A model generated the notes under the pieces. The model searched no databases. It was not told the origin of the DNA and was given only the letters and a program-made list of their open reading frames with translations. Shown here piece by piece: positions 32,948 to 54,100 of a stretch of 58,556 nt of DNA. Positions within the stretch are counted from its first letter, which is position 1, and each line of letters opens with the position of its first letter. Made by a program: the position numbers and the translations under genes. Location of the stretch: the IMG/VR virus record IMGVR_UViG_3300042363_000211, positions 1 through 58,556 of that record; one strand, 5' to 3'. The DNA comes from a virus (Duplodnaviria > Caudoviricetes).

Positions 32948-33139
32948 GTGAGATTACCGCGCCGTGTCCCCCAGAAGATCAAAGACGGAATAGGAGGTAG
33001 AGCTTTCTTTGCATACCTATCCCTGATTGTCTTCGTGTTTGCCACGCCTATTGGAGTATTCATGATCAACCCATCCTACGGTTTCATCTCGCTTGGCGGT
33101 GCCTCTCTTGTTAGCGCATGGATTCTAGGGGCTGAATAA
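32948..33139 (+). CDS. Small two-TM membrane protein preceding the portal
   Basis: Two hydrophobic helices; TAATG coupling to the portal start. Confidence 0.6.
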   Translation: MRLPRRVPQKIKDGIGGRAFFAYLSLIVFVFATPIGVFMINPSYGFISLGGASLVSAWILGAE

Positions 33140-35328
33140 TGGCTTGGAATACGACCAGCAACAAGTCTGTTTCTAACGCCGGGGAGAAAGCCCTCCCTAT
33201 GGGCGCACCCATTTCTACAAACCCATCTTTCACTCAGAGGGGTTACCACGACTCGTGGGATATTGAACGGGTCTACCGAGACGGTGTACGTAAAGTTACT
33301 TGGGTCTACCGTTGTATTGATGCAATCTCTGGAAACCAAGCCCGTCTGCCAATGCTTGGGCACAAAGACAACAAGCCCGATGGTGAAATTGTCAAGGACG
33401 CCAAGGTTCTAGATCTCCTAAACCGTAGAAGTAACGTCGGCGAAGACTCCTTTGCTTTCCGTTACAGACTCTCGGCCCAATTACTCACATCAAGCCGAGG
33501 AGCGTTCGTTGAAGTCTTGCGTGGACGTGGTGGCGATCCAATCGCACTCAACCTTCTCCCACCCCAATACACATCTCCGATTCCTGATCCCAAGAAGTTC
33601 GTATCTGCCTACGAGGTAAGACTGCCGAACATGGGTATTCAGTACATCAAGCCTGAAGACGTACTGTGGTTCAAGCATCCTCACCCTCTTGACCCATACC
33701 TGTCAATGACCCCAATGGAATCAGCAGGCGTAGCCATTGAGCTTGAGACTCTCGCAAAGTTCTACAACAGAAACTTCCTCGTCAACGACGGACGCCCAGG
33801 TGGCCTTCTCGTAGTTAGAGGCGACATGGACGAAGACGACAAAGATGAACTCAGGTCTCGCTTTCGTGGAAACATCGGTAAGACCGGATCAACAACCGTC
33901 ATCGCATCCGCTGAGGGAGTTGACTATGTTGACACAGGTGCTTCACCCAGAGACGCTGCATACATTGAGATGCGCCAAATCTCCAAAGAAGAAATCCTTT
34001 CCGCTTTCGGCGTTCCCGAGTCAATCATCGGTAACGCATCAGGCAGGACATTCTCTAACGCCGTAGAAGAAACAAGAGTCTTCTGGCTTGAGACAATGCC
34101 TCAGCATCTTGAAATGCTTGCGCGTGGACTTGACCCATTGCATCCCGATCTTTATTTCGACTTTGACATCAAAGATGTGCCAGTTCTTCAGATTTCCAAG
34201 CAAGAGAAAGAAAGATTCCTCATGCAGGAGTTCGCTAGTGGTCTTATCACCGCCAACGAATACCGAACAGGAACTGGTCGCAAATTGGTTGACTCAGAAC
34301 TTGCCGATGCAATGTTGGCAAGCCCGAACCTTGCACCAATCGGTAACACCGAGAAGAAGATGGAAGCACCTCCTCAGCCAGGAATGATGGGGCCACCGCC
34401 AGCTGGCGAGCCTGCACCAGAACTTGGACAAGAAGCAGCCATGGGTGAACAAGCAGGAGAGGCTCCTCTTGAAGAAGGAGTCACTACACCTGATCAAGGC
34501 GTAGCTGCTGACACAATGCTTTCAGCATCAACATCGATCGGTAAATGGGGGACCAAACAAGCACCCGAGAACAACGCAGAAGACGGTTGGGATACCAAGG
34601 AACTTGATGATGCCGATAGGTGGGCCGAGATTCTTGACTCAAACCTAGAGAGGTTCTTTGATCGTCAACAGCGAGTCGTGATGGAGAAGTCTGACGGAGC
34701 GAAAGCGAAGAAATCCCTCATTGCGGGAACACTCACAGCAGCAATGATCTTTGATCTAGATGTCTGGAACAAACAAATGCGCGACGACATCAGACCACTA
34801 GTTAAGGCAGTTGTTGAAGACGCAATGCGCACAGCCAACGAACGTACTGGTATGCCGATGGATACTTCAGAAGAAGAAGTTGAGCAGTACATCAACGAAC
34901 AGATGTCCCGGATTGAGAAGTCAAACAATACGACCAGCGACGAAATTGGCGCAGCAATTGTTGTAGCGATGGCTATGGCTCAGGAAGATAAAGAGGAAGG
35001 CGCACCAGCCCTCAAGTCCGCTTTGGTTGCTACTTTCGTTCATCTCCTCGCCAAGAGGAAGAGGCTTATCGCCGAGCATGAATCACAGACTGCCTACAAC
35101 GCAGGAATGTGGTTTGCGGGCAAACAAGCAGGTGCAATAAATAAGACTTGGGTGACTCGTAAGGACACGAGCGTAAGAGCGACCCATAGAGAACTGCAAG
35201 GTAAGAGCATCCCTCTTGCTGACGGATTCACGGTAGGGAACGAATCATTGCGATTCCCTGGTGACCCACTAGCACCAGCAGGTTTGACAATTAACTGTCG
35301 ATGCAGACTTAGGTTTAGCGTCTCTTAA
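33139..35328 (+). CDS. Portal protein (HK97-like) fused to a MuF/gp7-like head morphogenesis domain
   Basis: WVYRCIDAIS, NDGRPGGLL, ILSAFGVP and LITANEYR portal motifs; C-terminal KTW.T..D..VR.TH...FPGDP...NCRC. Confidence 0.9.
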   Translation: MAWNTTSNKSVSNAGEKALPMGAPISTNPSFTQRGYHDSWDIERVYRDGVRKVTWVYRCIDAISGNQARLPMLGHKDNKPDGEIVKDAKVLDLLNRRSNVGEDSFAFRYRLSAQLLTSSRGAFVEVLRGRGGDPIALNLLPPQYTSPIPDPKKFVSAYEVRLPNMGIQYIKPEDVLWFKHPHPLDPYLSMTPMESAGVAIELETLAKFYNRNFLVNDGRPGGLLVVRGDMDEDDKDELRSRFRGNIGKTGSTTVIASAEGVDYVDTGASPRDAAYIEMRQISKEEILSAFGVPESIIGNASGRTFSNAVEETRVFWLETMPQHLEMLARGLDPLHPDLYFDFDIKDVPVLQISKQEKERFLMQEFASGLITANEYRTGTGRKLVDSELADAMLASPNLAPIGNTEKKMEAPPQPGMMGPPPAGEPAPELGQEAAMGEQAGEAPLEEGVTTPDQGVAADTMLSASTSIGKWGTKQAPENNAEDGWDTKELDDADRWAEILDSNLERFFDRQQRVVMEKSDGAKAKKSLIAGTLTAAMIFDLDVWNKQMRDDIRPLVKAVVEDAMRTANERTGMPMDTSEEEVEQYINEQMSRIEKSNNTTSDEIGAAIVVAMAMAQEDKEEGAPALKSALVATFVHLLAKRKRLIAEHESQTAYNAGMWFAGKQAGAINKTWVTRKDTSVRATHRELQGKSIPLADGFTVGNESLRFPGDPLAPAGLTINCRCRLRFSVS

Positions 35329-35519
35329 TAAGAGACATTGACCCTTAATGTTGCGGCTTCAGCACGGAGTTCGTCAATCACTAAGTAAAGTCTTTCGTTC
35401 TCCGCAATAAGAGCTGGCAGATCACGGACAATCAAAGTCTCGCGATAAATCCATCTGTGCGAATAATCGCTGTCCATCATGTTGCGAAGATTCTCCTTCG
35501 CCCTTTCGGATGCTTTCAC
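35325..35519 (-). CDS. Hypothetical protein
   Basis: Coupled to the methyltransferase C-terminal ORF (GTGA overlap). Confidence 0.45.
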   Translation of the reverse strand: MKASERAKENLRNMMDSDYSHRWIYRETLIVRDLPALIAENERLYLVIDELRAEAATLRVNVSY

Positions 35520-36229
35520 CAGCTTTGTTCCTCTGTTGCGTTCTTAGCCTGCACATAACGCAACCCGAACCATTCAGCAACATTAGCTACAACACCATTT
35601 CCACACATGCGGTAACGATGTGTATCGGCCATCTTGACTTCTGTTCCGTCTTCTTGGATGCCTGCTGAAGTCCAACCTTCGTCCCAGCCCATAAGAAGTT
35701 CACACTCCAACGGGGTAAGGCGCCTCACTACGAGGTTTGTTTCTTGTCCTGTCATTTCTTGTCCTCCTGAGAACACTTGTAGATGATTACTGTCTACGGA
35801 TTGATTATTTATTTGCATCTTTGCACCCATGTCGGTGGTTAAGGTTCCTACTGGGCCTTGGCTTAGCAATGTTGGCTCTTCGTATCCGACTATGTGCATA
35901 TCGTGTCCGTGCATCGCATTGAGAGTAAACGAAACCGAGCCATCATTCAAGACCGTATTGCTCTTTGATCCTTGAAAGTTCAGCATGGCGAAAGGCTCTG
36001 GAGAAACGATTGCATGAGAGGACTTTGATGCTCCAGCGCGCAACGAGTTCTTCACGCCGCTTTCAGCCCAGTTCTCTTCCCTCATAGACATTGGTTCAAA
36101 CAGATGCACGTCTTGATAGGCAATGAAGTCCGAACTGTCTCGCCCGATCCTGAGAGTCCTGTGAACTCCACTGTCATCAATCTTCTGGTTGTACCCGTCG
36201 TACTCCCACACGGTTGGTTCGTCAGTCAT
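35516..36229 (-). CDS. C5 DNA methyltransferase C-terminal part (TRD-like repeats plus motifs IX and X)
   Basis: RRLTPLECELLMGW (IX) and RYRMCGNGV (X); start set to ATG 36229 with an AAGGA RBS. Confidence 0.85.
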   Translation of the reverse strand: MTDEPTVWEYDGYNQKIDDSGVHRTLRIGRDSSDFIAYQDVHLFEPMSMREENWAESGVKNSLRAGASKSSHAIVSPEPFAMLNFQGSKSNTVLNDGSVSFTLNAMHGHDMHIVGYEEPTLLSQGPVGTLTTDMGAKMQINNQSVDSNHLQVFSGGQEMTGQETNLVVRRLTPLECELLMGWDEGWTSAGIQEDGTEVKMADTHRYRMCGNGVVANVAEWFGLRYVQAKNATEEQSW

Positions 36230-36404
36230 TATGGGATCCTTGAATCTCTGTCTGGACGATGAATATCTGAGCGTGATGAGACTGCGGTGACGGCTGAAGC
36301 GCATTGACACACAGCCCTATTTCTGTCTCGGTCGCCGAGAAAGTGTTTGCCTTGGCATCCTCACGGATTGAGTAGGCAACTGGATTATCGGGTCTCTTTG
36401 TCAT
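36222..36404 (-). CDS. Stand-alone TRD-like module of the C5 methyltransferase
   Basis: AYSIREDAKANTFS...NALQPSPQSHHAQIFIVQ resembles the variable-region units of the flanking ORFs. Confidence 0.55.
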   Translation of the reverse strand: MTKRPDNPVAYSIREDAKANTFSATETEIGLCVNALQPSPQSHHAQIFIVQTEIQGSHND

Positions 36405-36663
36405 CTTTGTTCACTATGTCGTGTGCAATCAATGGGACGTTGTTTCCACCAGTTCCCATTCGTGCGAGCAGTGCTGGGAACACATCGGGATACACACGGA
36501 AGTCGTCAGTTCTTTGACCCTCGAAACATACGACATATCCAACGGCATGGGATCCGGTTGTGTCCAATGTGTACATCGGATCACCAACTTCACCAACATT
36601 GAAACCGTTCGCTTTAGTGTTGGCTGTCCTGAGAGGAACTACTGATTCTGCGTGGTCACTCAT
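36385..36663 (-). CDS. Stand-alone TRD-like modules of the C5 methyltransferase
   Basis: GDPMYTLDTTGSHAV and FPALLARMGTGGNNVPL units; ATGA overlap with the upstream stop. Confidence 0.65.
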   Translation of the reverse strand: MSDHAESVVPLRTANTKANGFNVGEVGDPMYTLDTTGSHAVGYVVCFEGQRTDDFRVYPDVFPALLARMGTGGNNVPLIAHDIVNKDDKETR

Positions 36664-37958
36664 TCTTGATCCTGCACTACAAAGTTGGTGTTGTGCATCC
36701 CGTTCTCAGCGTTCAACGACCCTGCGTATCCAGGCATAATCCTGACTTCATCACGTTGGTTCTGTTGGAACAGTACTGGAGTCTCATTGGTGTCGTACAT
36801 GATTGCGTGCCCGCCACCCTCAGCGCGAAGCGTTGGGAAAGCCGATGTAGAAGCCTGGTGATCAAGTCCTTGTGTGTGTGAGAAACCGATTGCCTTGAAA
36901 GCTTCTTCCTGCACTACGAGGTTCTCACCCCTGCTTGAAGGAACACCACCATCGCCACCACTCCTAAGACAAGCGGCAACTTCTGGCTTAACAATCAAGG
37001 TTTCTGACCCCCCACCAAGATCCCCACCATTAGCACGGAGGGTTCCAATACCTTCGCCATACTGTGCGAACTGTGTCTGAGTAAACGGAATTGATCCGTC
37101 GTGAACTGCAAGAACAGTCGCACGTGAGTCACCACCATTATCAAAGGCATTCAGGGTCGGGCTAACAATCTGCTCTTTCCAAGAGTCGTCATCCGTGTTA
37201 GAACTTGCCCTCTTGGACTTCACCCAACTTCGGGTGTCTCCGTCGGTTCGTCCGGCTCGGTCGCTGCCAGCGTCGTCAGAGCGGTCCTTAGAGGCTCCGG
37301 AAGCTCGCGTCCCCGTCTCTCGGCTCGTCTGATGATTCCCTTGGCCGCTCTGGCGCTCAAGCAGTAACGGCGCAAGCCCTCGTGCCACGGTTCCAGAACA
37401 TCCGACAACGTAGATACGACGGCGTCGTTGGGGAACTCCGAAACGCTGGGCATCGGCAATACGCCAGATGGCTGTCCGCTTTGGTCCCACCAGGACGCCG
37501 GACTTGGCCCACTTCTGCTTAGGGGGCAACTCAACGAGTGCTCCTGTGATTCCCCACAGCACGGCAGCAAAGTCGGCTCCGTTGTTACTAGATAAGGCGC
37601 CGGGGACGTTCTCCCAGAAGATATCCGCCCCGATTTCGTCAGCGATACGACATTGTTCCCAGAAGAGTCCAGATCTTGACCCATCAAGTCCCTTACGACG
37701 TCCGGCAACGGAGAGGTCTTGGCAGGGGCTTCCTCCTGCCACAATGTCTGGGCGGTGAATGTTGTCTGTGATGAGTCGCTCACGAGTTACCTCTCTTACG
37801 TCGTTGTATATGTATGTGTCTGGCCAATGTTTCCTAAGCACCATTCGTGCCTTGGGGTCAATTTCGCAAAGTGCGACAACATCCATCCCAGCGCGTTGAA
37901 GGCCGAGATCAAGACCGCCAGCCCCACTGAACAGAGACAGAACCTTGATTCTTGTCAC
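36660..37958 (-). CDS. C5 DNA methyltransferase N-terminal part (motifs I-VIII plus TRD-like repeats)
   Basis: LFSGAGG (I), GGSPCQDLS (IV), ENVPG (VI) and PQRRRR (VIII); lacks motifs IX and X; AAGGAG RBS. Confidence 0.92.
   Translation of the reverse strand: MTRIKVLSLFSGAGGLDLGLQRAGMDVVALCEIDPKARMVLRKHWPDTYIYNDVREVTRERLITDNIHRPDIVAGGSPCQDLSVAGRRKGLDGSRSGLFWEQCRIADEIGADIFWENVPGALSSNNGADFAAVLWGITGALVELPPKQKWAKSGVLVGPKRTAIWRIADAQRFGVPQRRRRIYVVGCSGTVARGLAPLLLERQSGQGNHQTSRETGTRASGASKDRSDDAGSDRAGRTDGDTRSWVKSKRASSNTDDDSWKEQIVSPTLNAFDNGGDSRATVLAVHDGSIPFTQTQFAQYGEGIGTLRANGGDLGGGSETLIVKPEVAACLRSGGDGGVPSSRGENLVVQEEAFKAIGFSHTQGLDHQASTSAFPTLRAEGGGHAIMYDTNETPVLFQQNQRDEVRIMPGYAGSLNAENGMHNTNFVVQDQE
37220..37783 (-). 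CDS. Overprinted (+1 frame) ORF inside the methyltransferase gene; candidate accessory subunit
   Basis: 187 codons with a GAGG RBS 6 nt before GTG; STLSDVLE...RYCLSARAAKGIIRRAERRGRELP..L..AL is a motif I associate with C5-MTase loci. Confidence 0.6.
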   Translation of the reverse strand: MSDSSQTTFTAQTLWQEEAPAKTSPLPDVVRDLMGQDLDSSGNNVVSLTKSGRISSGRTSPAPYLVTTEPTLLPCCGESQEHSLSCPLSRSGPSPASWWDQSGQPSGVLPMPSVSEFPNDAVVSTLSDVLEPWHEGLRRYCLSARAAKGIIRRAERRGRELPEPLRTALTTLAATEPDEPTETPEVG

Positions 37959-38091
37959 GATTACTCCTTAGTTACATAAGCCCGATACGGACAAGACAAA
38001 TACTAGCAGTCAGGGTACCCGTAGAAAGGCCCTCTGTCTAGTAGATATTCGCGTATTCCTAGCACACTCCGATTTCCTCTAGTGGTCGCCA

Positions 38092-38433
38092 ATGGAGTAT
38101 CTTCGACGTATGGTCGCGCGGAACGAAACACAAGGTGAAGAGATATTCCCTGGGGTAACACTCTTCTCTGCGGGTCGTGAACCTTGCATTATTTGCGGTC
38201 ATCCAACAGGCGATTGTGCGTCACATTTCAATGATGAACGAGCCCTTACTGCTCCTAGGATTCAGTTCGGCGAAATAGTAAAGAAGGACAAAGAGGACAA
38301 CCCTGAGATACGGGTTGAGCATGACATCTTCAAAGAAGTTCAACTTACATCTATGACAAAGACCAGAGTTCTAGTCGCTAGAGCTGGAACATTTATCACT
38401 AAGTCGAAAGCCCAGGAACTGGGTCTCATCTAA
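38092..38433 (+). CDS. Hypothetical protein with CxxC-H-C motif
   Basis: PCIICGHPTGDC; lies upstream of the RNR gene. Confidence 0.65.
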   Translation: MEYLRRMVARNETQGEEIFPGVTLFSAGREPCIICGHPTGDCASHFNDERALTAPRIQFGEIVKKDKEDNPEIRVEHDIFKEVQLTSMTKTRVLVARAGTFITKSKAQELGLI

Positions 38434-38462: not shown

Positions 38463-40382
38463 ATGGCAATCTCAAAGGACTTCGTGTCCACCTACACAAA
38501 CAAGCAAGCACCATGGGGTTTCGGAGGACTCGGCGAAATTGTGTACCTCCGCACTTATTCGCGTGAAGTTGAAGGTCGTAAAGAAACATGGCCCGAGACA
38601 ATTGAACGTTGCATCAATGGCGCAATGAGTATCGGTGCTGCACTCACAGACGAAGAAGCGGAAACTCTCTTTGACCACATCTTCAACCTTCGCTGCTCGT
38701 TATCTGGACGCGCACTCTGGCAACTTGGCACACCACTTGTTGACAGGTTCAACGGAACAAGCCTCAATAACTGCTACTTCGTAAACGTTGAGAAAGTTGA
38801 AGACTTTGAGCTCATCTTTGACTACCTTATGCTGGGTGGTGGCGTTGGTTACTCAGTAGAACGCGCTCGCATTCACGAACTTCCAAAGGTCAAGACAGGC
38901 GTAGTAATTAACCACGAACGCACCAATGATGCAGACATTATTGTTCCTGACAGTCGTCAAGGCTGGCGCAGACTTCTTCATGCCGTACTGAAGTCATACT
39001 TCTACACAGGCAAATCTTTCGACTACTCCACAATTCTTATTCGTGAGTTTGGTGCGCCCCTGAAGACATTCGGAGGAACAGCATCTGGCCCAGGAGCGTT
39101 AATTGACGGTGTTGTTGACATCTGCAAAGTGATGGATGCTCGCGCTGGAAAGAAACTTCGTTCAGTAGACGTTCTTGACATCTGCAACATCATCGGACGA
39201 ATTGTTATCTCTGGATCATCTCGCCGTTCGGCTCAAATTGCTATTGGCGACCCTGACGACGTGTTGTTCCTTCGCGCAAAGAACTGGTCATCAGGAACAG
39301 TTCCAGCATGGCGAGCCAACTCAAACAACTCCGTCTACGCAGACTCATACGACCACATCATGTCGGAACTTTGGAAAGGATACGACGGCTCTGGTGAGCC
39401 ATACGGTCTCATCAACCGCGGCCTTGCTCGCAAAGTAGGACGTCTCGGAGAGAAGAACCCAGATCCAACCATTGACGGTTTCAACCCTTGTGCTGAGATT
39501 GGTCTCGCCGATGGAGAATCATGCAACCTTGCAACAATCTTCCTACCCAACATCACCTCCTACGAGCAAATGTCGGAAGTCAGCAGGCTCCTGTACAAAG
39601 TCCAGAAGTCAATCACATCTATGGAGTACCCATACGAGAAGACCACCAAGGCAGTTCAGAAGAATCGCCGGCTCGGTCAGTCCGTCACAGGAATCCTTCA
39701 ATGTTCCGAAGAGCAAATCTCATGGCTGTCAAAGGCATACGAAGACCTCAAGGAATACGATATTTGGTGGTCGGAACAGAATGGCATTACCCCATCTGTT
39801 CGCCTGACCACCGTACAGCCCTCTGGAACGCTCTCTCTGCTCCCAGGAGTGACGCCGGGTATCCATCCTGCATTCGCTCGTTATTACATCAGGCGAGTCC
39901 GTTTCGGTGCCGCTGATCCACTCATTGAGAAGTGTCGTAAGCGTGGATACAAGGTTGTCCCAGAAGTCGGTCTTGACGGCAGGGAAGACCACAGCCGTTG
40001 GGTTGTGGAGTTCCCCTGTGAGTCTCCTGAAGGCTCAATCCTTGCTGCCGACATGACAGCCGTAGAACAGCTTGAATGGGTGAAGAAGATGCAAACAGAA
40101 TGGGCCGACAACGCCGTATCTGTGACCGTCTACTACCGCAAGGAAGAACTTTCCCTGATCAAAGAATGGCTTGAGAAGAACTACGACAACGCCGTAAAGA
40201 GCGTCTCGTTCCTCCTCCATGCCGATCACAACTTCCCACTTCCTCCATACGAGGAAATCACTAAGGAAACCTACGAGAAGCTCCTCGGAAAGGTTGACTT
40301 CACAGTCGCCCTCCAAGACACTGTCGGTTTCGACCTTCTTGATATGGATGATTGTTCAACGGGGGCTTGCCCAGTCCGTTAA
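38463..40382 (+). CDS. nrdJ: Class II (adenosylcobalamin-dependent) ribonucleotide reductase, RTPR-like
   Basis: RTYSR, GRALW, NCYF, RRSA, NPCAEI, CNL, TVQPSGT, VSVTV and C-terminal CSTGACP; no beta subunit gene nearby. Confidence 0.92.
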   Translation: MAISKDFVSTYTNKQAPWGFGGLGEIVYLRTYSREVEGRKETWPETIERCINGAMSIGAALTDEEAETLFDHIFNLRCSLSGRALWQLGTPLVDRFNGTSLNNCYFVNVEKVEDFELIFDYLMLGGGVGYSVERARIHELPKVKTGVVINHERTNDADIIVPDSRQGWRRLLHAVLKSYFYTGKSFDYSTILIREFGAPLKTFGGTASGPGALIDGVVDICKVMDARAGKKLRSVDVLDICNIIGRIVISGSSRRSAQIAIGDPDDVLFLRAKNWSSGTVPAWRANSNNSVYADSYDHIMSELWKGYDGSGEPYGLINRGLARKVGRLGEKNPDPTIDGFNPCAEIGLADGESCNLATIFLPNITSYEQMSEVSRLLYKVQKSITSMEYPYEKTTKAVQKNRRLGQSVTGILQCSEEQISWLSKAYEDLKEYDIWWSEQNGITPSVRLTTVQPSGTLSLLPGVTPGIHPAFARYYIRRVRFGAADPLIEKCRKRGYKVVPEVGLDGREDHSRWVVEFPCESPEGSILAADMTAVEQLEWVKKMQTEWADNAVSVTVYYRKEELSLIKEWLEKNYDNAVKSVSFLLHADHNFPLPPYEEITKETYEKLLGKVDFTVALQDTVGFDLLDMDDCSTGACPVR

Positions 40383-42863: not shown

Positions 42864-45800
42864 CTATTTCTTGACCATCGGATAGGGGATAGATTCAACA
42901 CCAGATACGGGCACATCGGCCACTACGCCTTTACCCATCTTCTTCAGGCTCTTCTGCATTAGTTTGTAGTAAGCGACGATGTCTTTGTTTGTTTCGTCAA
43001 CATCAGAATCCTCAATAGAAACACCCGAAATTGCTGCTCTATAGATCATTTGCCGGGTCTCTGGAGACAGCGTAGGCTCGTCTCCTAGTCGGTCGTAAAG
43101 CTTGTCTGTCGGCACAACAACATCGTTCGCAGTGACTGTTCGCCCACTTGAAACATGGTGACACATTGTTGTTGAATAGAAGTTGTCATCGTCGGCAGTG
43201 AGAGGAATTGGGGTCTTGTTGTCTTCCGTGGCGGGAGTGTCTGGCTTCATAATCAACTGAGGCATGGATGAAAGTTTCCCACTTGCATCAGCCTTGGTTG
43301 CTGGCTGCTCTGGAATCAGACCAGCTTTCCTTGGAGGGATAGCACCAGTAGTGATCGTTGCGGCGTTCTGTGCTTGCAGTTCTGTCTCAAGAGCCTTCTT
43401 GGCGAGGGCACCCTCAACAAGCGAAGCATGAGCCTGGTAAGCAGCCTCTTCACCATGTCGGTCAAACCCACGTCCCGTAGCGGCATGGCCGAAAGCGTCA
43501 TGAATTGCTCTGAATCTGTCACTCTGTTCATCGTCCCACAATGGGTGTTTCTCGTCTGGTGTAGTCCGTTTGACTTTGAGAGTCTTGTTCATCTCAATGT
43601 CGTCAATCATCTCAAGATGGCTTCTGTACGGGTCGTTGTCTACAAACTCAACGTTGATACCCATGTCCTTGGTAAGCAAGGAATATAGGCGATCGGTTTC
43701 TGTACGCAGGTCTTCGTACGCCTGTTCGGCTTCCTTAGACACGACTTCCATCTCCTCGTAAGCGCGGGCAAGTTCCTGCCTTCTCTCCTCGGTCACAGCC
43801 TTAACCTTTGAGTAGTCCACCCCTCCAGGAAGGACAGCAGCAAGTGCGGGTGATGGTTCAGCAATTATTGAGTCAAATCCTTCAATCTTGGCGGTGCGTA
43901 TCCTGCGATCAGCGACTCGCTTTGATGCGATGAACCTTGCTTTGCCTTCTTCGGCGAAATAGTTGACATCTTCATACTTCTGAACCGAGTTCTGTGACGC
44001 TTTGCCCAGAATATGCTTCCAAGCTTCCTGGTCGTGAACGACAAGAGTCCCATCTTTGTAGGCGGCAATCGTGTACGGATTACTGTGATCTTCGTTGTTT
44101 ACGATTTCAAGATCGTCATAGACCCCATTCTGAAGACCATGCAATACGGCTCTCGCAACGTCAATGTGCGTATCAATAACAACCGACGGAGGAACTCCCC
44201 TGCCTGTCTCTTCCTGCCTTCTCTCAGCCTCAGATACAGCCATAGAGATAGGGACATCAGCGATTCTTCCCTTGATGATGTAGCCATTCTCCCTAAGAGC
44301 ATTCATTCTTTCAGCAAACGCCCTTGGGCCTCCATCGCCAGTACTGTCAACTACTACATGAAACCCTTCTTCGGAGGCTCTCTTGATTGCAAGTTTCTGA
44401 ATGTATGTTGATTCCGAATGAACAAGTTCTGCTGCTTGCAAAGGATCCATTCCTCTTTCCTGCAACTCTTTGACGAGAGTGTCAAACTCAGGAAGCATGT
44501 GCTTGATTTCGTCGGCATCAAGATGAACGGCTTCATTACCGCGTTGAGGCGTATCAAAGAAACCACCCTGCCTGAGGAATGTCTTTCCGCTTGCAGGTCC
44601 TCCACCCATCATCCAAGCCATTGGCTTGTCACTCCTGCGAGGTGACCATTCACCGTTGCCAAACATGATTGACTCAATGATTGAATCGTGAAGGGCTTGC
44701 CTCTCGGGAGTTATCATCCCTGACCCAAGACCAAAGTGCTCAAATGTGCTTGTCATCTTGCCGTTTGGTTGGATTAAATCGTCTACTGATGCGCCCTTGT
44801 GATCCCCAGCAGGTGCTGGCGCATGTGCGAAATCTCGTTGAGTTTGAACAAGCCTGTAGTGGCTCTTTCTTGATGGAAGCAAACCCCTCAACCTTGAGGA
44901 CGCCAGCGGCTGAGGAACATCTTGAGTGATGTCTGGTACGAAGATGTTCTTCTCTGGTTCGCCACCTCTGAGTTCGTTAATAGTTTCTTCAATCCTCGTG
45001 GAGATACCTCGCGCAATTCGTCTGTTCTCTCGACCCGTGGAACCTTCTGACGAAACAACACGCACCCTTGACTTTGGTTTCCTGCCACGGACACGTGATC
45101 CAGCACCTCTGACAGCATCTGCTACATCGGTTGCGAAACCAACGAAACGACGCTTCAACGGTTCGTTCTCATCAATCCAACCATCACGATCGGCATCACG
45201 AGGGAGAGACTTTGTTGAAACCTCATCTGGATTTCTGATACCACTACAAACCGAAACAAATAGGTCTCCGTTGTCCATAACGGTAAATGCCTTCTTCTTG
45301 CGTTCTGATTTCTCATCAAGCCATTCCGACATCTTTGCCCAACCATCTGCTTCAGGAATGGGGTGACCTAGTTTCTGCGCAGATCGTGTCTCTGCCACCA
45401 TCTCAAAGTTGTTCACATTTGCATAAGGACTCACTTGTGAACGGAAACCAGAGTTGTCTATTGTCGCAACTTCTTCATCGGAAAGTCCGTCAAACGGTCT
45501 TGACGACCACAAATCATCTATTGCCTGATAGTTCTCGGTCATGAATAGCTGTCTTGCGAGAAGACGAGCCTCTGTCGTGGACATGCCTTCGGCGACAAGC
45601 TTGGCCTCTATTTCATTGATTGCATCACTTGTTTCTCGCGGAGAAAGACCATTCATTTCCCCTGCTTTGTCAACACCATCAAACCCAATCTTGAAACCGA
45701 TATCTTCAAATGACTTAGAGAAATGAAGAACATGACTCCATTCGTGAGTAGAAACATAAGCACCGTACATCTCATCAATGTCTGATTCTGGAATCCCTTT

Positions 45801-47462
45801 CTTCAATGCGTCCCTCACAACCGCATCACACCAGCCATCGGTAGATTTAGGATTAGCAGGAATATTCTTTACTGCTCCTCTGCCTACTGTCGGATTGATG
45901 TCAATGTAGCCACCAATCTTGCCGTTACGAACCATAACCCCAGCAAGACCGATATAACCACCAATGCGATTATTGTGAATCATTCTGCCAGTTGAAGACA
46001 ACACCAACATTCCATCGGCATACTTCTTGCTGTTCATTCCTTCATGTAATAATCCGATAATGACACCACGCAAGGTTGCTGGGATTTCTCCATCGTTCTC
46101 TTCGATATCAAAGTCAAACTCAACGAGCTTCTTGAACACCTTCTTCAGTGCTTTGTGGGCCTGTTTCTCTGTCTTTATCTCGCCAAACCTCTGTTCGACG
46201 GTCTCTTTCATCTTTGCGTAATTAGCAATAATGTTTGCTGGATCAGAATCAACACGTTTCTTCTCATCGTTATCTCCACCAAGAGGCATCAGAGCAGCGC
46301 GACGTCCTGGTTCACCAACCATCCTTGTTGGTGCTGGCATCTCTCGAGTTTCGCCATCGTAAACAACACCATCTCCGTCACCGTCTAACGGGATAGCACT
46401 AGAAAGGTTTCTAGGAATCTTTGGCAACGCTTTGGTCTGTTGACCCCAAGGATGTTCTTTCTTCAGAAGGTCATTATCGGCGATGTATTTCGGATTATCC
46501 GGCCTGCCAGAAGAAAGCATCTTGAGATACGCCTCTACTCGCATCTCTCCCCATTTGGATCTATTACCTAAATCGGGTCGGTTGAGTGAGTCGAAAGCAG
46601 CAACACCACGCCTCATGACGGACTTCAGTTCCGAAGCAGAAGCAAACGACCATTGAGGCATCCCAACTGATCGCATCTTCACGTTGTGTTCCCTCGCGGC
46701 GACAATCAACGACTTAGTTGCGTCTTGAGTGATTGAAACAGATTTAGCGTTCCTCCTGCTAGTCCTGCTTCCACGGATTGATTTCTTGCTTCTAGAGAAA
46801 GCTGAGGCTCTCGCTACTTCCCTGCGAACAACGCGTTCAATTCTTTGCTGTTCAATACGTCCACGTTCGTTCCTGTACGCACCCTGACCCGTACGACGAT
46901 CAAAGGTCACCCCCGTAGTACAAGGCATCCATACCTGCCTGCCGGAAGATGTTGTGTACCTGCGAATACCAGTACAACCGACTTGAGCGGCCCTCATACG
47001 TGCAGCGTCGGGACTAGTGAAAGTGTCTGGATCTCCAACCTCTGGAGTGAAAGGTGCAATACCTTTACCTCCGCCACCCATGTCGCCTGTTATCCCTGGG
47101 CCAGATCCACTAGAAACAATCCCACCCATTGGACTCGCCGGCATAGCTGGAGGAGCAGAAACAATCCCTGCTGATGTGCCAACCATTCCGTAACTTCTCT
47201 CGGTGAGTTTCTCCCACCGTTTACGATCAACAAGTTTGCGGCGTTTCCTACCTGACGATGAAATCTTTATTTCATTCGCAGCCTTAGGCATAGAGAACGG
47301 CACTTCAAGATTTGACCCTGCAGCTTCGGATAAACGGTTCAGTTCTTCTGCGCTCCCACAAGGCATCCATGTGCCATCAACTTGATGTGCGCCAGAACAA
47401 CCAATGTTCTTGGCCATCTCAAGAGCGTCGTCTTTAGAAACTGATTTCTTCTTATCAGCCAT
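42864..47462 (-). CDS. Giant multidomain protein: 2x WMPC repeats, HExxH metallopeptidase, Zeta-toxin kinase and HDxxGH domain
   Basis: GC.G...WMPC x2; THEWSH plus SPYA..N..EMVAE; GGGPASGKT, DADEIK, VHSES and VVDSTG; FRAIHDAFGH...GEE. TGATG coupling at 47462 (the track start is 47471). Confidence 0.85.
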   Translation of the reverse strand: MADKKKSVSKDDALEMAKNIGCSGAHQVDGTWMPCGSAEELNRLSEAAGSNLEVPFSMPKAANEIKISSSGRKRRKLVDRKRWEKLTERSYGMVGTSAGIVSAPPAMPASPMGGIVSSGSGPGITGDMGGGGKGIAPFTPEVGDPDTFTSPDAARMRAAQVGCTGIRRYTTSSGRQVWMPCTTGVTFDRRTGQGAYRNERGRIEQQRIERVVRREVARASAFSRSKKSIRGSRTSRRNAKSVSITQDATKSLIVAAREHNVKMRSVGMPQWSFASASELKSVMRRGVAAFDSLNRPDLGNRSKWGEMRVEAYLKMLSSGRPDNPKYIADNDLLKKEHPWGQQTKALPKIPRNLSSAIPLDGDGDGVVYDGETREMPAPTRMVGEPGRRAALMPLGGDNDEKKRVDSDPANIIANYAKMKETVEQRFGEIKTEKQAHKALKKVFKKLVEFDFDIEENDGEIPATLRGVIIGLLHEGMNSKKYADGMLVLSSTGRMIHNNRIGGYIGLAGVMVRNGKIGGYIDINPTVGRGAVKNIPANPKSTDGWCDAVVRDALKKGIPESDIDEMYGAYVSTHEWSHVLHFSKSFEDIGFKIGFDGVDKAGEMNGLSPRETSDAINEIEAKLVAEGMSTTEARLLARQLFMTENYQAIDDLWSSRPFDGLSDEEVATIDNSGFRSQVSPYANVNNFEMVAETRSAQKLGHPIPEADGWAKMSEWLDEKSERKKKAFTVMDNGDLFVSVCSGIRNPDEVSTKSLPRDADRDGWIDENEPLKRRFVGFATDVADAVRGAGSRVRGRKPKSRVRVVSSEGSTGRENRRIARGISTRIEETINELRGGEPEKNIFVPDITQDVPQPLASSRLRGLLPSRKSHYRLVQTQRDFAHAPAPAGDHKGASVDDLIQPNGKMTSTFEHFGLGSGMITPERQALHDSIIESIMFGNGEWSPRRSDKPMAWMMGGGPASGKTFLRQGGFFDTPQRGNEAVHLDADEIKHMLPEFDTLVKELQERGMDPLQAAELVHSESTYIQKLAIKRASEEGFHVVVDSTGDGGPRAFAERMNALRENGYIIKGRIADVPISMAVSEAERRQEETGRGVPPSVVIDTHIDVARAVLHGLQNGVYDDLEIVNNEDHSNPYTIAAYKDGTLVVHDQEAWKHILGKASQNSVQKYEDVNYFAEEGKARFIASKRVADRRIRTAKIEGFDSIIAEPSPALAAVLPGGVDYSKVKAVTEERRQELARAYEEMEVVSKEAEQAYEDLRTETDRLYSLLTKDMGINVEFVDNDPYRSHLEMIDDIEMNKTLKVKRTTPDEKHPLWDDEQSDRFRAIHDAFGHAATGRGFDRHGEEAAYQAHASLVEGALAKKALETELQAQNAATITTGAIPPRKAGLIPEQPATKADASGKLSSMPQLIMKPDTPATEDNKTPIPLTADDDNFYSTTMCHHVSSGRTVTANDVVVPTDKLYDRLGDEPTLSPETRQMIYRAAISGVSIEDSDVDETNKDIVAYYKLMQKSLKKMGKGVVADVPVSGVESIPYPMVKK

Positions 47463-47758
47463 CACACCCACGTACGAATGTACTTCTCCGCAATCCTTGC
47501 GTTTCTACCTGTCATCTCCATTGACGAACAACCAGAGAACCGGTTATTCCAACTGTCAACATAGTCGTAGTAGAACTCTTCAGCCTCCTCTGGATCAAGA
47601 GATAAAGAGTTGCCGTTTAGCACCCCAAGTTTGCTCTTGTACGGCGACCCAGCGGGAGCATGGAACCTAAGCATTCCGTTCCTGAGAGTAATCATCGCAA
47701 TCGGTTTATCGTCTGACCCAACATCGGTGTTGTATACCAGGGCAACCATGTCTTTCAT
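47462..47758 (-). CDS. Small hypothetical protein between the giant ORFs
   Basis: 98 aa; start and stop overlap both neighbours. Confidence 0.65.
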   Translation of the reverse strand: MKDMVALVYNTDVGSDDKPIAMITLRNGMLRFHAPAGSPYKSKLGVLNGNSLSLDPEEAEEFYYDYVDSWNNRFSGCSSMEMTGRNARIAEKYIRTWV

Positions 47759-48189
47759 AGCGAGTCCTTCATTGCGAGAGAGTTAAGGAAAGCAGCCATT
47801 GTCTCTGATTCTGATCCTATAGCCCATTCGGAATCCTCAATCACCAAAGGTCTAATCAATGAATCTTTGTCTCTGTCTAGAGTGTCAATGATGATTCCTG
47901 AGTCAATCTTGTTCAGTGACGCAGGTTTCAGAATCAAATAAGGAAGATCTAACGGAGCTAAAGAAATAACACCTTGTCCGTTCTCGTCCACTAATGATCC
48001 AGACATAATCACCATTCTTGCCGTGGGATCGTTGAGATAGGAGTGAACCATCGGCCTGTCCGTGCCGAACATTTGTATTTCTTCTTCGTCAGGATCGTCT
48101 GACTTTGATGTGGTTGGCCATGGGGCGACCTTCTCGTACTCCGACACAAGGTCGGCGAACTCCATCACTCTCTTTGATTCACTAGCCAT
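47755..48189 (-). CDS. Small acidic hypothetical protein after the giant ORF
   Basis: 144 aa; starts 2 nt after the giant ORF's stop codon. Confidence 0.65.
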   Translation of the reverse strand: MASESKRVMEFADLVSEYEKVAPWPTTSKSDDPDEEEIQMFGTDRPMVHSYLNDPTARMVIMSGSLVDENGQGVISLAPLDLPYLILKPASLNKIDSGIIIDTLDRDKDSLIRPLVIEDSEWAIGSESETMAAFLNSLAMKDSL

Positions 48190-48191
48190 GA

Positions 48192-51100
48192 TTACGCCAC
48201 CGTCTTTCCTGGTACATCAATCTCCGCACCGTTAAAGAAGGTATTGTAAACAGTCACTGCAGCGTTCTTCCCAATCAGTTGCTCTAAGCCTAAATTGCTA
48301 AGAACACGATAGTTTCCAGCTGCATCCCTAACGACATGGAACTTGACATCAGCATTCTCTGAGGCGGCCTTCAATGCGCGCTTCTTTGCTGTGGTCACAT
48401 TAGGAGTCTTCTTCAACCCCTTGTCACCCCAGTAGAAATAAGCGGAATTAAGATTTGTTGGTATGTCGCCTGGAAGTACAACCAATTCTTCTGTTGGCTT
48501 ATTGAGAGAAGACTTTGACGCAACGCTGAATCCGTGAAGCGAACTGCTTGAGAAATTAGGGCCAAGCATCTTTCTTGCGCCGTCAGGAGACGCAATGAAG
48601 AAGTCCTCTACGGGGATGCCGTTAATTTCATCAATACCTTGGTCTTTGTAAATCTTGATGAGGTTCAACCTTCTGTTTGCGGAGTATCCACCATTTAGAA
48701 CGACACCCTTCATCTTGTCTAGTGTCGCCGCACCATCAGGAAGGAACTCGAAAGTTTCTTTCTTACTCATGTTGCCAACAGATGTCTTAGAGGAAACCGA
48801 GTTAATCCTTCCACTATCAGGGTTGATTACGCCGAATGGGCCATCATGAGGACCATGTGCCCACCATCCGATATCTCGGAGCATTGCTTCACCATCAAAG
48901 ATGACATCGGTTCCACGGGTGGTCCATACATCCTTGTGCTTCCCAGTAGTAGCCACAGGGGTCATGAATACTCCCTTGCCACCGCCGGTACCAAGATCTT
49001 CTTGTGCCGAGGCTCCACCGCCACCGCCACCAACCGATGTTCCACCAAGACCGAATCCTGCTGTTACCTGATCAGCCTTACTTAGTACTCCACCAGAAGT
49101 AATCATGCGCGTAATGTTTGCCTCATCGGCGTATGCGTTCATCGTCTTAATCATCACATGACCAGATTCTTTGAGACCAGGGTTGTTGGTCTGCACTCGA
49201 GCCCATGCTTCGTCACTAAGCCTGAACCTCATGCGACCCATAGAGTCAAAGTAAGGCTCAAGATCGTTGACCGTTAGTCCTTGCTCTGAAGCAACTCTTG
49301 CTAGTCGCGTTCCGAGTGGTTCTTTCATCTTTGTTGGATCAAACCCATCGTATGTCCTCACCAACAGTTCGGCAGCCTGTGCTTTCCATTGGTCATCAGC
49401 TGTGTAACCAGAATCCTTGATGCCTATCTTTGCAAGAACATCATGTACCTGTTGAGGGGTTGGTGCCGTGTCGCCTGCGAAATGAACCTGCACAGTACCT
49501 GCCGTTGAGTACGCACTTCCTGCGGTTCCTGTATTGACGATGATTACATGTCCCTCTTCAGTCTTTGCGATGATATGAGCCGAGGCGGTATCTCCAGCAG
49601 TTCCACCGATTTCCGTCAAATTAGAGTTGTAACCGTTGGGGTCTCCAAGATCAGCAGTGCGTGGATCCGCTTTGAGAACTCCGTTATCCGTCCTGAAGAA
49701 CTTATGTTGTCCTCCGATAGACAGGATTTCAACACCTGAACCAGAGGCATCAATCTTTGCTGCCAAGGAAGCCGCTAAAGCCTTTGCCTCATTGTCATCA
49801 ATAGCCAGTGTCATTGTTGTCAGGTTTGGGGCACCGCCGGCTACTGGTGTTACATGGATTCTTGCCCCGCCCTTGACCTGTCCGCCACCGATTGAAACAT
49901 AATGATGGCTTCCGACATTTGCCTGTGCAGCTTCAAGTGCCGAAGTGACCGTCTTTGCATTCGGAAGAGCTGGAGCGTTTCCGAACGCTTCTTCACCAGC
50001 AATCGGTTCAGCCTTCGTCATCTTGGAAACCGTTTGACCAGGTGAAGTTACTTTCTTCGGAGTCTTTGACGCCTTGAGTAGACCAGTACCGACTTCGTTC
50101 TCAACCGTCTGACGTGCAGTAGCAATTTCTTCGTCGGACATTCCGAGTTCTTTCAGCATTGGATCAACATACGAGGCAATCCTTGCTTTCTTCTCATCAA
50201 GCCTTTGTGCTGATTTCCTGACAGTTGCTGCGTTTGCGCCGGAAAGGTTCTGACCAGAAATCAACTTCTCCGCTTCTTCTGCGTAATCAGTTGTCTCTGC
50301 GCGATGAACAGCGTGAAGTACTGCCTCAGCGAAACGTTGCTTGCGTTCTGGGGTCGTCATTGACTCCTTGGCAAGTTTCCATGTTCCATCACCATCAAGA
50401 CCCGTAAACATGAAACCAAGCTTGTCTTCGGTTGCTTGAGAGTTTGCACCCTTCGGCATCTTGTTGCCGTCTTTGTCAAAGAACTTGTGTTGCTTGAAAT
50501 CACCGAAAGCGTTACCGTGGTCAATTGGGTGGTATTGAACCGTTCCATCTGGGTTCTCAACAGCAATCCAGTTATGACCTTGCCTGTCGTAGTACCTAAA
50601 CATTGAGTCCATGACGACTCCGCCTGCAAGCGACTCTGGAGTAAGCCTTGAGATAACCTCTTCGCGCTCAGCTTTAGGCATATCCCTGACATGGCCAAGG
50701 TTCTTACCTTCGTAAAGCATCTCTGAAGACTCAAGAAGAACGCTGAACTGTTCGGATTCAGGGTTGGAATCTGGATGCGAGTATTGGGCATACTTATTTG
50801 GTGCAGTAAAGATGACGCTTGCCGTACGACCACCAGACGATGGGAAACCAAGGGTCTGCATGACTTGGTTGCCGAATAGTTCGCGTGCTCCTTCTTGGTC
50901 GTTCCTCGTGGCTGACTTGAGAACAAATGTATGTCCCGTAGCGGTATCAAGGAAACGATGAGTCTTCTTCTTCTCGTCGGGAGCGTACGAGTCGTTGTAT
51001 CCAGATGCCTTTGAGAGGAACTTGAAACGCCCACTCTTTCCGGCTCCTTCACGGTGCTGCCAAATTGCTTCAAGAAGCAAGTCGTTAGGAACGTCTGCAA

Positions 51101-54100
51101 GGCTTCCGCCCGTCGCAATGAAGTCATCAAGTTTGGCTGCTTCCGTTGCAATCAGTTCGTCACTTGCGTCCGTTGGAAGACCAGAAGGAACGAACTTTCC
51201 AATTGCTACTCCGTTCGGGGCTGATACACCAAGGTTCTCAATTCCTGCGTATCCCTCCTTAACCTTCGGCATGCCTGGCGAAGTCATCAAGTCCATGACA
51301 TCGGTTGCGTCAGCAATAGGAATGCTTCCTGGTACTGCGTTAGTGAATATCGCTTCGGGAGCCGCCATGTTGGCGTTGATGGCTTCCTCCATGTCAATCA
51401 CGGCGTACTTGTCGTCTGAAATCTTAAAGATTCCAAGTTGTTGACCCTGTTTCAGAATCGGGGCAATTGCTGTTGCAACATCAGCAGCCTGCTGAACGCT
51501 AGGTGAGTTCTCATGGAATACTGACCCCTGCTTCAGGAAACGTTCTTCTCCGTCAACGATAAGCACGGTCTTGCCTGCATATTTCTTGTCCTTGAACTGA
51601 GAAGCAATTTCTTTGATTTGTTTCTCTGTTCCAATAGAAGCCTTCATCTTCTGCTTTGCCGAGATGTAATCAGTAATATGTTCAGCAGTTGACTTGTCGC
51701 CAAGCACGCCGCTATTCAAAGCTTCTGCGGCTTCTTCCATCATCTTCTTAGCGATGTTGGCTTGTTCTGTAGCATCGTTAATTGCTGGCAATAAATCTTT
51801 CGGATCGTTGTACACGCCAGCAAGAAGGTTCTTGTTAACCTCAGCAACGGTTTCCATTGAGTCAAGGTTGTAGGCGGCGTTATTTGCAAGCCATGCCTTT
51901 GCTGCCTGGCGGCGAATGAGAGTACTGCGCATCTTCGTTACGAAGCTGTCGTGATCAAGACCCTTCTCGGTAAATGCGGCCTTGATTTCGTCTTCTGACA
52001 TCTTTGATATGTCTTTACCATCAAAGACCATGTCAAATTGCTTCTTCATGTCAGCCAAACGAACGTTTGCTTCTTCCAACTTCTTGCTTGCGAGGGAAGA
52101 CCCACCACCGTCAAGTTTCTCTGCCCAATTATTCGCAACAGCAAATGTGGCAGCAGCATCAATTCCTTCTGCTTCCATCCAGTCGTTGTCGTCTGGATTG
52201 CTCAGCACTTTGCCGATCGTCTTGGATGAATCCGATGTCATTTCACCGACATAGTCCGTGTACGAACCTGAAGAATCAAATCCCCCAATCTTCTGGAAGA
52301 TTGCTGGATACTTATCTGCAAGGAGGATATTAGATCCCTTTATTCTCAGAATTACTGGATCAGCATCGCCAAACTTGACAGAGTAGAAAGCCATTTCTTC
52401 ATCAGGGCCTTTGCCGTTGTTGATTTCAACCTGAACCTGCTCAACATAGTGAGCGATATTCTGTCTTGACTCTTCGTTGTCAAGACCAAGAAGGTCGGAA
52501 GTTGAAGATATAAGTCCAGAGTTCTGAAGTGCGTATGCGTTTGGAAATCCATCCAATGTCATTGCTGGCTGATTCATCCAAGCAGTGACTACGTCAAGTT
52601 TCTCTGATTCCGTGAGGTCAACGAAGTCGTTTGGAAGCTTGCCTGTGCCAACTTCACTTCCAGCCCATGTTGACCACACAGGCTTAATGTCGCGAATAAC
52701 AGCAAACTGATCCTGCTGTTCTCCCGTGAGGGCTTTCCATTCACTTCTCTTGACGACATGGAATAATCCATCTGAGTCCTTAACGACCACGCCACCATTT
52801 GATCCAAACTTCTCGTAGAAGTCTTTGTCGAAAGTCTTACCAGCATCTGTCGAGTAGAGGTTGATGTTGTCAAAGTTCTTACTGCTTGAATCCATGAACG
52901 CATGTTCAAACGGGTTGACAATATCGTTAATGAGGGAGTATTCGTCAGAAGTACTTAACGATGCCTTCTCAAAGAGTGGAGAACCTTCAGAAGGAGTGAA
53001 GTCACCCTTGACCCATTGTGTAGCAATACTTCCACCGATGACCCCAGCAGGAATTGGATTGCCATCGGAGTCCTTGCCGTCGTAGGAGTACATATGCGGA
53101 ACCGTTTCCTGCCATGCCCCTAGTTCGTCGTTCTTCGTGAACTTCTCATCAACCCAGTATCCAACCTTGGAGTCATCGTTCTCGAAATAATGGAGGATGC
53201 CAGTCTTACCCTTGAACTTGGGCGCATTGCCGTCGTTGACTTCTTGGTTTGCTTTCTCCCAGTCAGAAACAACACCGAGGATTGCTCCTTCTGGTGCTGC
53301 GTCAATGAACGCCTGGTTGATCTTTCCACCACCAGCTTTGACTTCTTCAATCTGGGCAGATACAGCAGACGCGCTGGTGTTCTGAATCTTCGGTGCTTCT
53401 GGTTCTGGAGGATTGACAGACTCTTCAATCTTCTTAATGTCCTCAGCGACTTGCTTCTTCGTCTGCTTCTTCGTGCCAATCTTTGCAAGAGCTGCTTTCT
53501 TAAAGTCCACTTCGGAGTTAGAAAGACTCTTGATAATACCCTTCTGTGCGGACGGCCCGAGATGGTTGAACCGGTCTATGGCTGTCATGTCGGGAGCGTT
53601 CTCTGACGAGTATGAACCGTCCCTTGTCAGAACATCAAAGTTGTGCAGATGGGTTCTGAGAGCAGCAATTTCACCAATGTCGTCACCGTTCTCAACCTTG
53701 GAACGTAATTTCTCAACAAGAGACTTCCTGAGTGCTCTTTCTCCCGCTACTGACTTGACCACCCATTGTTCACCAGTCTCACCATCTGGAAGGTTTGTCT
53801 CTTCAAGATAAAGAAGACTTGTGTCTGCGATGCCGGACTTTCCTAGATAGTCAATGAGGTTGTCTTTGGCGGCACCAAGTTCCGTGGAGATAACTAGTTC
53901 TGTTGCATTATCTTTGTCGGCAGCATCAATCTGCTTGCTCGTCTTGAAAGGTACTGGCGAGTCTGGGCTTACTTTCTTCGGATTGTTCTGTGCGTAATCA
54001 AAGTCTTCAAGTAATTTCTTCTTGAGCAAATCACCTTTCTCGTTGATGATGTTCTTTATCGCTTCGTAATCAAGGGCTTTCTTGGCTTTATCTAGCTTGG

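Follow-up and report, generated by a model that had tools for sequence, protein, structure and literature searches.

Does the gene of a phage C5 cytosine DNA methyltransferase carry a second gene in its +1 reading frame, and if so, what does the hidden product contribute to the enzyme? The question is raised by IMG/VR record IMGVR_UViG_3300042363_000211, a viral record of 58.5 kb (58,556 nucleotides; Duplodnaviria, Caudoviricetes; CheckV completeness 39%), which in its full length is called the window below. On its minus strand the window encodes a C5 cytosine methyltransferase that is split over several cistrons, A to D, with motifs I, IV, VI and VIII in cistron A; motifs IX and X were also found. 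A first-pass annotation, made from the letters of the sequence, had pointed to a 187-codon open reading frame (ORF) that spans motifs IV-VIII of cistron A in the +1 frame, and had interpreted it as a nested β-type polypeptide of the enzyme. The ORF list, the frame offset and the motif positions agree with this description (Table 1), and the results presented here support the interpretation. The nested ORF, hereafter β, begins 175 nt after the main start, at main codon 59, just upstream of motif IV and 19 codons before the main-frame PCQ; it crosses motifs IV, VI and VIII, and ends at approximately main codon 246, about 65 codons beyond motif VIII. We conclude that β is almost certainly a real coding gene, and that it is under purifying selection in its own frame.

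The length of the nested ORF does not carry this conclusion. When the main ORF was shuffled among synonymous codons, the longest open run in the +1 frame had a mean of 146 codons, and the same interval stayed open in 5% of the shuffles. Runs of at least 188 codons, equal to the one observed, were reached in 17%, and ORF length was therefore dropped as evidence for a nested gene. An open frame no longer than chance is in line with the view that the ORF is untranslated, and that what conserves it is constraint on the main frame or some element at the nucleotide level, for instance RNA structure. The N-terminal motifs of the nested translation fit that view as well, since they largely mirror the main frame: AKTSP and SGRTSP are the mere +1 readings of PCQDLS and WENVPG, respectively. 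Because the open length alone is within chance, the case for a nested gene rests on conservation.

Closure of the frame in homologues had been named in the first-pass annotation as evidence against a gene. The frame is open in 6/6 related viral contigs (184-190 aa); all six share the offset of the GTG and the ribosome-binding site, and their main-frame identities are 73-95%. Nonsynonymous (dN) and synonymous (dS) divergence of three diverged relatives (L006, L008 and L009) from the window was calculated by Nei-Gojobori counting over main codons 184-232. Under the C-terminal block of β, the +1 frame shows a dN of 0-0.06 and a dS of 0.38-0.90, and the main frame a dN of 0.14-0.25 and a dS of 0.05-0.12, corresponding to a main-frame dN/dS above 1. 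Counted as changes in the +1 frame, the three relatives differ from the window by 0 to 6.5 nonsynonymous versus 11.5 to 21 synonymous substitutions. The comparison with L009 yields 21 +1-synonymous and 0 +1-nonsynonymous changes (binomial P 1.3e-12), and selection on the +1 frame is also detected against L006 (P 1.5e-7) and L008 (P 5e-4). Across 65 distinct and distant loci, identity over the block region is 65.5% when read in the nested frame and 53.0% in the main frame.

Synonymous variation in the main frame is reduced over the overlap, as anticipated in the first-pass annotation. In sliding-window counts the synonymous share is 0.4-0.6 before codon 55, falls to 0.2-0.35 from the nested start and to 0.00-0.19 from codon 126, and returns to 0.44-0.76 from codon ~244, exactly at the nested stop. 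Since the selection is frame-specific, RNA structure or main-frame constraint cannot explain the pattern. An untranslated ORF is hard to reconcile with a main frame in which dN exceeds dS under the block while the +1-frame changes are mostly synonymous, or with a block that is better conserved than the main frame across distant loci, and we consider it extremely unlikely.

The gene probably has its own translation initiation, to judge from its conserved start signals. The ribosome-binding site GAGG, reported in the first-pass annotation, is part of the sequence AAGAGAGG, and the string AGA GAG G...CGT GAR, which holds both the Shine-Dalgarno (SD) sequence and the GTG, is identical in 7/7 sequences (the window and six relatives), although synonymous sites next to it differ. 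In the family at large, 33/62 loci have an SD-like motif ahead of the first nested start, compared with a background of 10.7% (five-fold), and nested starts most commonly lie 11 codons upstream of PCQ. Positions 36841-37731 recur with zero differences and zero gaps in an independent run from a lake metagenome (X4); the open nested frame is therefore not an assembly artefact.

The block could in principle be reached in another way, by a programmed +1 frameshift just after motif VIII, which would yield a truncated isoform consisting of motifs I-VIII plus the block, and no free small protein. The block indeed begins directly after motif VIII, where single-chain Dcm-type enzymes have a loosely similar segment (a weak point in favour), and the CCCC run in GTT CCC CAA at motif VIII could permit a +1 slip. 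However, the run is not conserved, and most family members read GVAQ, not GVPQ. Frameshifting also does not account for the SD sequence and GTG that are conserved 125 codons upstream in all seven sequences, for the enrichment of SD-like motifs before nested starts across the family, or for main-frame synonymous variation that is already reduced from the nested start, far upstream of motif VIII. Moreover, the β polypeptide of M.EcoHK31I is functional when expressed from a separate plasmid, according to the available excerpt of the published study (Meister et al., 2010, PMC2836561). We regard the frameshift as very unlikely, and return to a separately translated β.

The nested protein consists of two dissimilar parts. 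Over motifs IV-VIII it is rich in Ser, Thr and Pro and predicted to be disordered. At the C-terminus it reads LSDVLE...YCLSARAAKGIIRRAERRGRELP, which conforms to the family pattern LSDVLE...GI[IL]RRAE.RG..LP; the main frame opposite this block is a low-complexity linker rich in Gly, Ser, Thr, Arg and Asp, and translations and alignment both confirm this juxtaposition, which the first-pass annotation had noticed. The two frames probably divide the DNA between them, the block being constrained opposite a tolerant main-frame linker, and the nested frame being a mirror where the methyltransferase motifs are constrained. In the AlphaFold prediction two helices of β, residues 144-157 and 163-173, are confident (predicted local distance difference test score, pLDDT, ~90), and the confidently folded part has the form of a basic helix-loop-helix-like hairpin. 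We also observed a 19-residue insertion in β (residues 68-85, window positions 37530-37580), common to the window lineage and the family members P0006 and P0007, with a conserved CC-x4-H-x4-C arrangement (TTEPTLLPCCGESQEHSLSCP). It may form a small metal-binding knuckle, and in this stretch the main frame has almost no synonymous variation.

We propose that ribosomes start at the conserved GAGG-N6-GTG, which would give a separately translated overlapping gene. The poorly structured N-terminal part, mostly mirroring motifs IV-VIII, would be read first, and translation would end with the conserved basic two-helix block, whose coding sequence coincides exactly with the tolerant linker of the main frame. 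The protein so made would be a small accessory polypeptide that docks on the methyltransferase, as M.EcoHK31I β does on α. Taken as a whole, we consider this explanation likely. The narrower claim that β is a methyltransferase subunit is, on balance, the assignment that we favour, and binding and activation are suggested by analogy.

M.EcoHK31I is a type II C5 methyltransferase of E. coli and an isoschizomer of M.EaeI, and reportedly was originally described by Lee et al. in 1995. Its β polypeptide, of a presumed 176 aa, is similar in size to the nested product of the window. In the available excerpt of Meister et al. (2010, PMC2836561), with which the precedent cited in the first-pass annotation agrees, β is encoded entirely in another reading frame of α, and both chains are needed for activity; α comprises motifs I-VIII, motif X and the target-recognition domain (TRD), and β is equated with 'motif IX'. 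The same excerpt reports that silencing the β starts by α-silent changes abolished methylation, and that N-terminal truncation of β weakens its association with α (PMC2836561). Like that polypeptide, the small ORF in the window lies wholly within another frame of a catalytic gene. The window enzyme differs in that it is phage-borne, has no restriction partner seen adjoining the locus, and is split into further cistrons. It differs also in having canonical motifs IX and X in cistron D, where M.EcoHK31I β is said, in that part of the text, to hold motif IX.

A second known case is found in the record of Streptococcus phage MM1 1998 (DQ113772), in which orf13 and orf14 are annotated as 'C5 methyltransferase alpha subunit' and 'beta subunit'. 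As in the window, orf14 (1462-1887) is nested in the +1 frame of orf13 (1311-2468; locus L011), and the α ORF keeps its own motifs IX and X. The family profile of the nested protein (A1) aligns with MM1 orf14 over 120 columns with an hhalign probability of 98.8% (E 1.1e-16), a score that comes partly from the shared mirror of the methyltransferase motifs, and a direct BLASTP comparison of the window and MM1 β proteins gives a weak match (27% over 63 aa, E 0.001). MM1 β is only 141 aa long and ends inside the block, short of the basic RRAE.RG..LP helix, and MM1 α is a single chain, unlike the cistrons of the window. The gene in the window is a member of the already known nested β genes of the M.EcoHK31I/MM1 type, and this copy is new. 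What makes it interesting is not so much this one case as how wide the unannotated family is and how poorly the explanation by motif IX fits.

The division of the enzyme itself over separate chains has precedents too. M.AquI is a split C5 methyltransferase with motifs I-VIII and IX-X on separate polypeptides. In mycobacteriophage Omega, motifs I-VIII are on gp127 (248 aa) and IX-X on gp128 (185 aa), a distribution that matches cistrons A and D of the window. In both M.AquI and Omega the parts are consecutive, non-overlapping genes, whereas the feature of interest in the window is an extra gene overprinted on the first one; Omega has such an overprinted gene as well, unannotated, in the +1 frame of gp127.

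Natural fusions bear on whether β is part of the enzyme. In other genomes β is fused in frame to TRD, motif IX and motif X (P0196, P0212, P0221, P0222, P0250, P0261, P0287, P0289, P0290 and P0298), and the nested frame in these forms runs past the block into the TRD modules, motif IX and motif X. Fusions of this kind typically join parts of one enzyme, and they fit β as a physical part of the methyltransferase. The viral locus closest to P0290 is L096 (64% identity), which is of the ordinary nested type, indicating that nested and fused architectures interconvert among relatives. Two rearranged forms were noticed in addition. Five long proteins (P0301, P0304, P0307, P0311 and P0312) have a β-like block at their start, then TRD modules, motif IX and motif X, followed by a motif I/II-like end (LGSLFDGIGGFPL...EIEEFP), and look like circularly permuted or tandem methyltransferase arrangements. 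In the clusters P0019 and P0024, ~60% identical to each other, motifs I-IV continue in frame into the last 130 residues of β at the same junction; this resembles a conserved change of frame after motif IV more than it does a sequencing error.

The product could alternatively be real without being a structural subunit: it could be a regulator or independent factor, such as a small basic protein that binds DNA and adjusts the expression or timing of the methyltransferase, or a protein with a host-directed function that happens to share the locus. For such a role speaks that all ten motifs are there without it, that the only confident fold is the basic helix-loop-helix-like hairpin, and that the AlphaFold prediction of the natural fusion P0212 (pLDDT 59; predicted template modelling score, pTM, 0.30) shows no confident packing of β against TRD, IX or X. 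Against it stand the fusions to the TRD-IX-X half, the M.EcoHK31I precedent, in which β is a subunit according to the excerpt cited above, and the genomic association of the two genes. From IMG/VR, 80 loci were kept, of which the 71 that fit the block pattern form the scored set, the other nine being left out. The nested gene is tied to a C5 methyltransferase gene in 71/71 scored loci: the ORF one base upstream is always long and extends past the nested stop, with ENV and QxRxR in 70/71, motif IX in 62/71, and motifs IX and X in 57/71. We therefore consider a regulator or independent factor unlikely, though better placed than the frameshift or an untranslated ORF, and an accessory subunit the preferred reading.

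Besides the unremarkable length of the open frame, several observations weigh against the proposal of a separately translated accessory subunit. The case for translation is built on sequence, and the RNA-library contig X9 spans the region yet cannot separate the two frames or exclude an origin from DNA. In overlap region A the +1-frame dN/dS is near 1, so that the N-terminal two thirds of the nested product may be little more than a leader, and the AlphaFold model of β alone has a mean pLDDT of 55 and is confident only for residues ~141-175. The β protein of the window matched no Pfam, NCBIfam or PHROG family (PHROG 16143 was not matched at E 0.01), and searches of PDB sequences with the β protein and with A1 gave nothing meaningful (best E 0.27-0.5). 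The likeness to M.EcoHK31I was judged from the arrangement of the genes. Finally, the enzyme has all ten motifs without the nested product: cistron D has both IX and X in canonical form, motif IX is in the main ORF in most of the scored loci, as given above, and a profile comparison of A1 with A2, the alignment of motifs IX-X, shows no similarity (hhalign probability 0.08%).

The last of these points bears on one version of the proposal. A canonical motif IX downstream had been pointed out in the first-pass annotation, and it is indeed found in ORF 35516..36310, from which cistron D is read; motifs IX and X appear as VVRRLTPLECELLMGWDEGWT ... GNGVV, and positions 35573-35770 match the C-terminal part of PF00145 (E 8.8e-5). 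Since cistron D has motifs IX and X and the β profile is unlike them, the published motif IX rationale does not fit here, and the idea of β as simply the supplier of a missing motif IX was rejected.

More attractive, though weakly supported, is a different origin for the block, which may correspond to the segment after motif VIII of single-chain enzymes, moved to the +1 frame. The only match of A1 to E. coli Dcm pairs β 108-156 with Dcm 293-338 (E 0.032, probability 1.6%), and among six natural fusions the alignment runs through the block in 2/6 with TIGR00675 and in 0/6 with PF00145. If this segment is indeed displaced, the main-frame linker 'VLFE..S..G...RE.G' of the clade largely mirrors the hidden gene. 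In that case the 'orphan' phage C5 methyltransferases of the clade, despite having all ten motifs, would act as heteromers with a piece supplied in trans or, in some genomes, fused to the TRD-IX-X half.

The family extends well beyond the relatives of the window. It first came into view through a 70% DNA match, confined to the block, with gp127 of mycobacteriophage Omega and with virus Rctr41k, which carry the same block in the +1 frame, in ORFs with an ATG shortly upstream of motif IV, and an 'ILFERQ..' linker in the main frame. The same block is present in the +1 frame of MM1, Caulobacter phage DMCA, P7 dam and Bcep22 gp25; as in Omega, the nested gene is unannotated in Bcep22. A tblastn search of phages with the 66-aa block alone gave zero matches at E 10, probably owing to its shortness and the low-complexity filter; this null is probably technical, because the whole family member P0017 matches 139 phage records by tblastn. 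Among 40 of these 139 matches that were listed, 31 lie under features annotated as methyltransferase, methylase or Dam, and the other nine have a hypothetical product or no annotation. In IMG/VR, a search by pattern confirmed at least 575 viral stretches.

Gene callers have often recorded the product without naming it. Clustered at 50% identity, gene-caller products of the nested family comprise 6054 representatives at E <=1e-3 and 937 at E <=1e-30; at 90% identity there are 947 clusters, and the best 120 of these 947 are all unnamed or 'hypothetical', all but one without a Pfam family. No member among the 947 or the 6054 clusters is named M.EcoHK31I. PHROG 16143 ('DNA methyltransferase', 139 positions) is matched by P0011 (E 1.7e-8) and P0017 (E 6.3e-12), indicating that some phage annotations already call the nested ORF. 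In P7 dam (L013, 2182-4200) the nested ORF lies in the C5 half of the bifunctional P1/P7 gene, where the +1 open segment has 165 codons and ends ...YFLSSKACAGILRRAEARGRKLPDILQTSL... The P1/P7 methyltransferase gene occurs in 493/5426 complete E. coli genomes, mostly on plasmids, and a P7-type gene in 494 RefSeq E. coli records, of which the 12 rows inspected annotate the methyltransferase coding sequence only. A literature search, whose coverage was incomplete and left most subscription journals outside, found no description of a family-wide nested gene in phage C5 methyltransferases. We put forward tentatively, as a possibility that we rate below even, that the nested gene is a pan-phage overprinted family of ~6,000 clusters at 50% identity without a Pfam or NCBIfam model, that its conserved block is the displaced post-motif-VIII segment, and that the clade works as heteromers.

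Overprinted phage genes are rarely demonstrated convincingly from sequence data, and the signature here is textbook-clear. What was an isolated biochemical curiosity, M.EcoHK31I, is thereby extended to methyltransferase genes in hundreds of phage loci, those of the model phages P1/P7, Omega, Bcep22 and MM1 among them; the hidden gene is missed by standard annotation. Recoded or codon-optimised expression of such enzymes would silently delete the hidden partner, which could explain inactive or altered recombinant phage methyltransferases. By the same token, not all of the 'conserved linker' that follows motif VIII in this clade should be taken as a methyltransferase motif.

Table 1. Coordinates of the nested gene, its signals and the methyltransferase cistrons in the window.
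Feature	Position	Strand	Remark
Nested +1-frame gene (β), 187 codons + stop, GTG start	37220..37783	-	wholly inside 36660..37958
GTG start of nested gene	37781..37783	-	made by main-frame codons CGT GAR; conserved 7/7
Shine-Dalgarno-like sequence AAGAGAGG (contains GAGG)	37790..37797	-	6 nt before GTG
Conserved C-terminal block of β, residues 115-174 (SEFPNDAVVSTLSDVLE...YCLSARAAKGIIRRAERRGRELPEPLRTALTTLA)	37262..37441	-	nearly invariant in +1 frame, main frame varies
Zone with main-frame synonymous variation almost abolished, main codons 126-243	37230..37583	-	from sliding-window counts
Cistron A, C5 cytosine methyltransferase, 432 aa	36660..37958	-	motifs I-VIII, linker, then TRD-like modules
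Motif IV (PCQ; P78 C79 Q80), main frame	37719..37727	-	nested frame reads AKTSP there
Motif VIII (QRRRR; Q177-R181), main frame	37416..37430	-	nested frame reads NDAVV there
Cistron B, 92 aa, TRD-like modules	36385..36663	-	ATG overlaps stop of A (ATGA)
Cistron C, 60 aa, TRD-like module	36222..36404	-	91 aa in L005
Cistron D, ~237 aa, ATG at 36229	35516..36229	-	TRD-like modules and canonical motifs IX and X

The methyltransferase is split over four consecutive cistrons in three frames (35516-37958, minus strand) with tightly overlapping junctions, and β adds a fifth product to this module-shuffling locus. Residues 4-190 of cistron A match positions 1-164 of the PF00145 profile (E 1.6e-36), and the protein also matches TIGR00675 (E 3.1e-34); its invariant residues include PCQ (motif IV, 78-80), ENV (motif VI, 116-118) and QRRRR (motif VIII, 177-181). 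Cistron B matches phrog_16528, 'DNA methyltransferase' (E 3.2e-6). Each of the four cistrons begins with Met followed by charged residues, and each is under purifying selection relative to L005, with ratios of nonsynonymous to synonymous differences per site (pN/pS) of 0.07-0.17; the individual pN/pS values are 0.035/0.487 for B, 0.047/0.331 for C and 0.076/0.454 for D.

Whole TRD-like modules have been gained or lost relative to a 95% relative, as seen in the lengths of C (60 versus 91 aa) and D (237 versus 328 aa). The variable region (35600-37220, minus strand), found also in L012 and L096, contains many repeats of a short module, xPTLxAxxGG....VV, for example SPTLNAFDNGGDSRATVLAV, GTLRANGGDLGGGSETLIV and FPTLRAEGGGHAIMY. 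These repeats are reminiscent of the tandem target-recognition domains of multispecific phage methyltransferases. Assemblies of a DNA run and of a metatranscriptome library (X8 and X9) both contain a variant ~3% different over 36600-38100; 37 of the 40 differences listed (seven more exist) fall within 36637-37200 and only three inside the nested ORF, and the variant has 18 inserted bases at 36993-36999.

Sequence words of the window are also present in lake and freshwater metagenome runs. By eye, the plus-strand ORFs that flank the methyltransferase locus resemble a ribonucleotide reductase (38463-40382, 639 aa) and a portal protein that ends in a head-morphogenesis domain (33139-35328, 729 aa). 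The minus strand has two very large ORFs, of 1535 and 3403+ aa, within 42864-58403.

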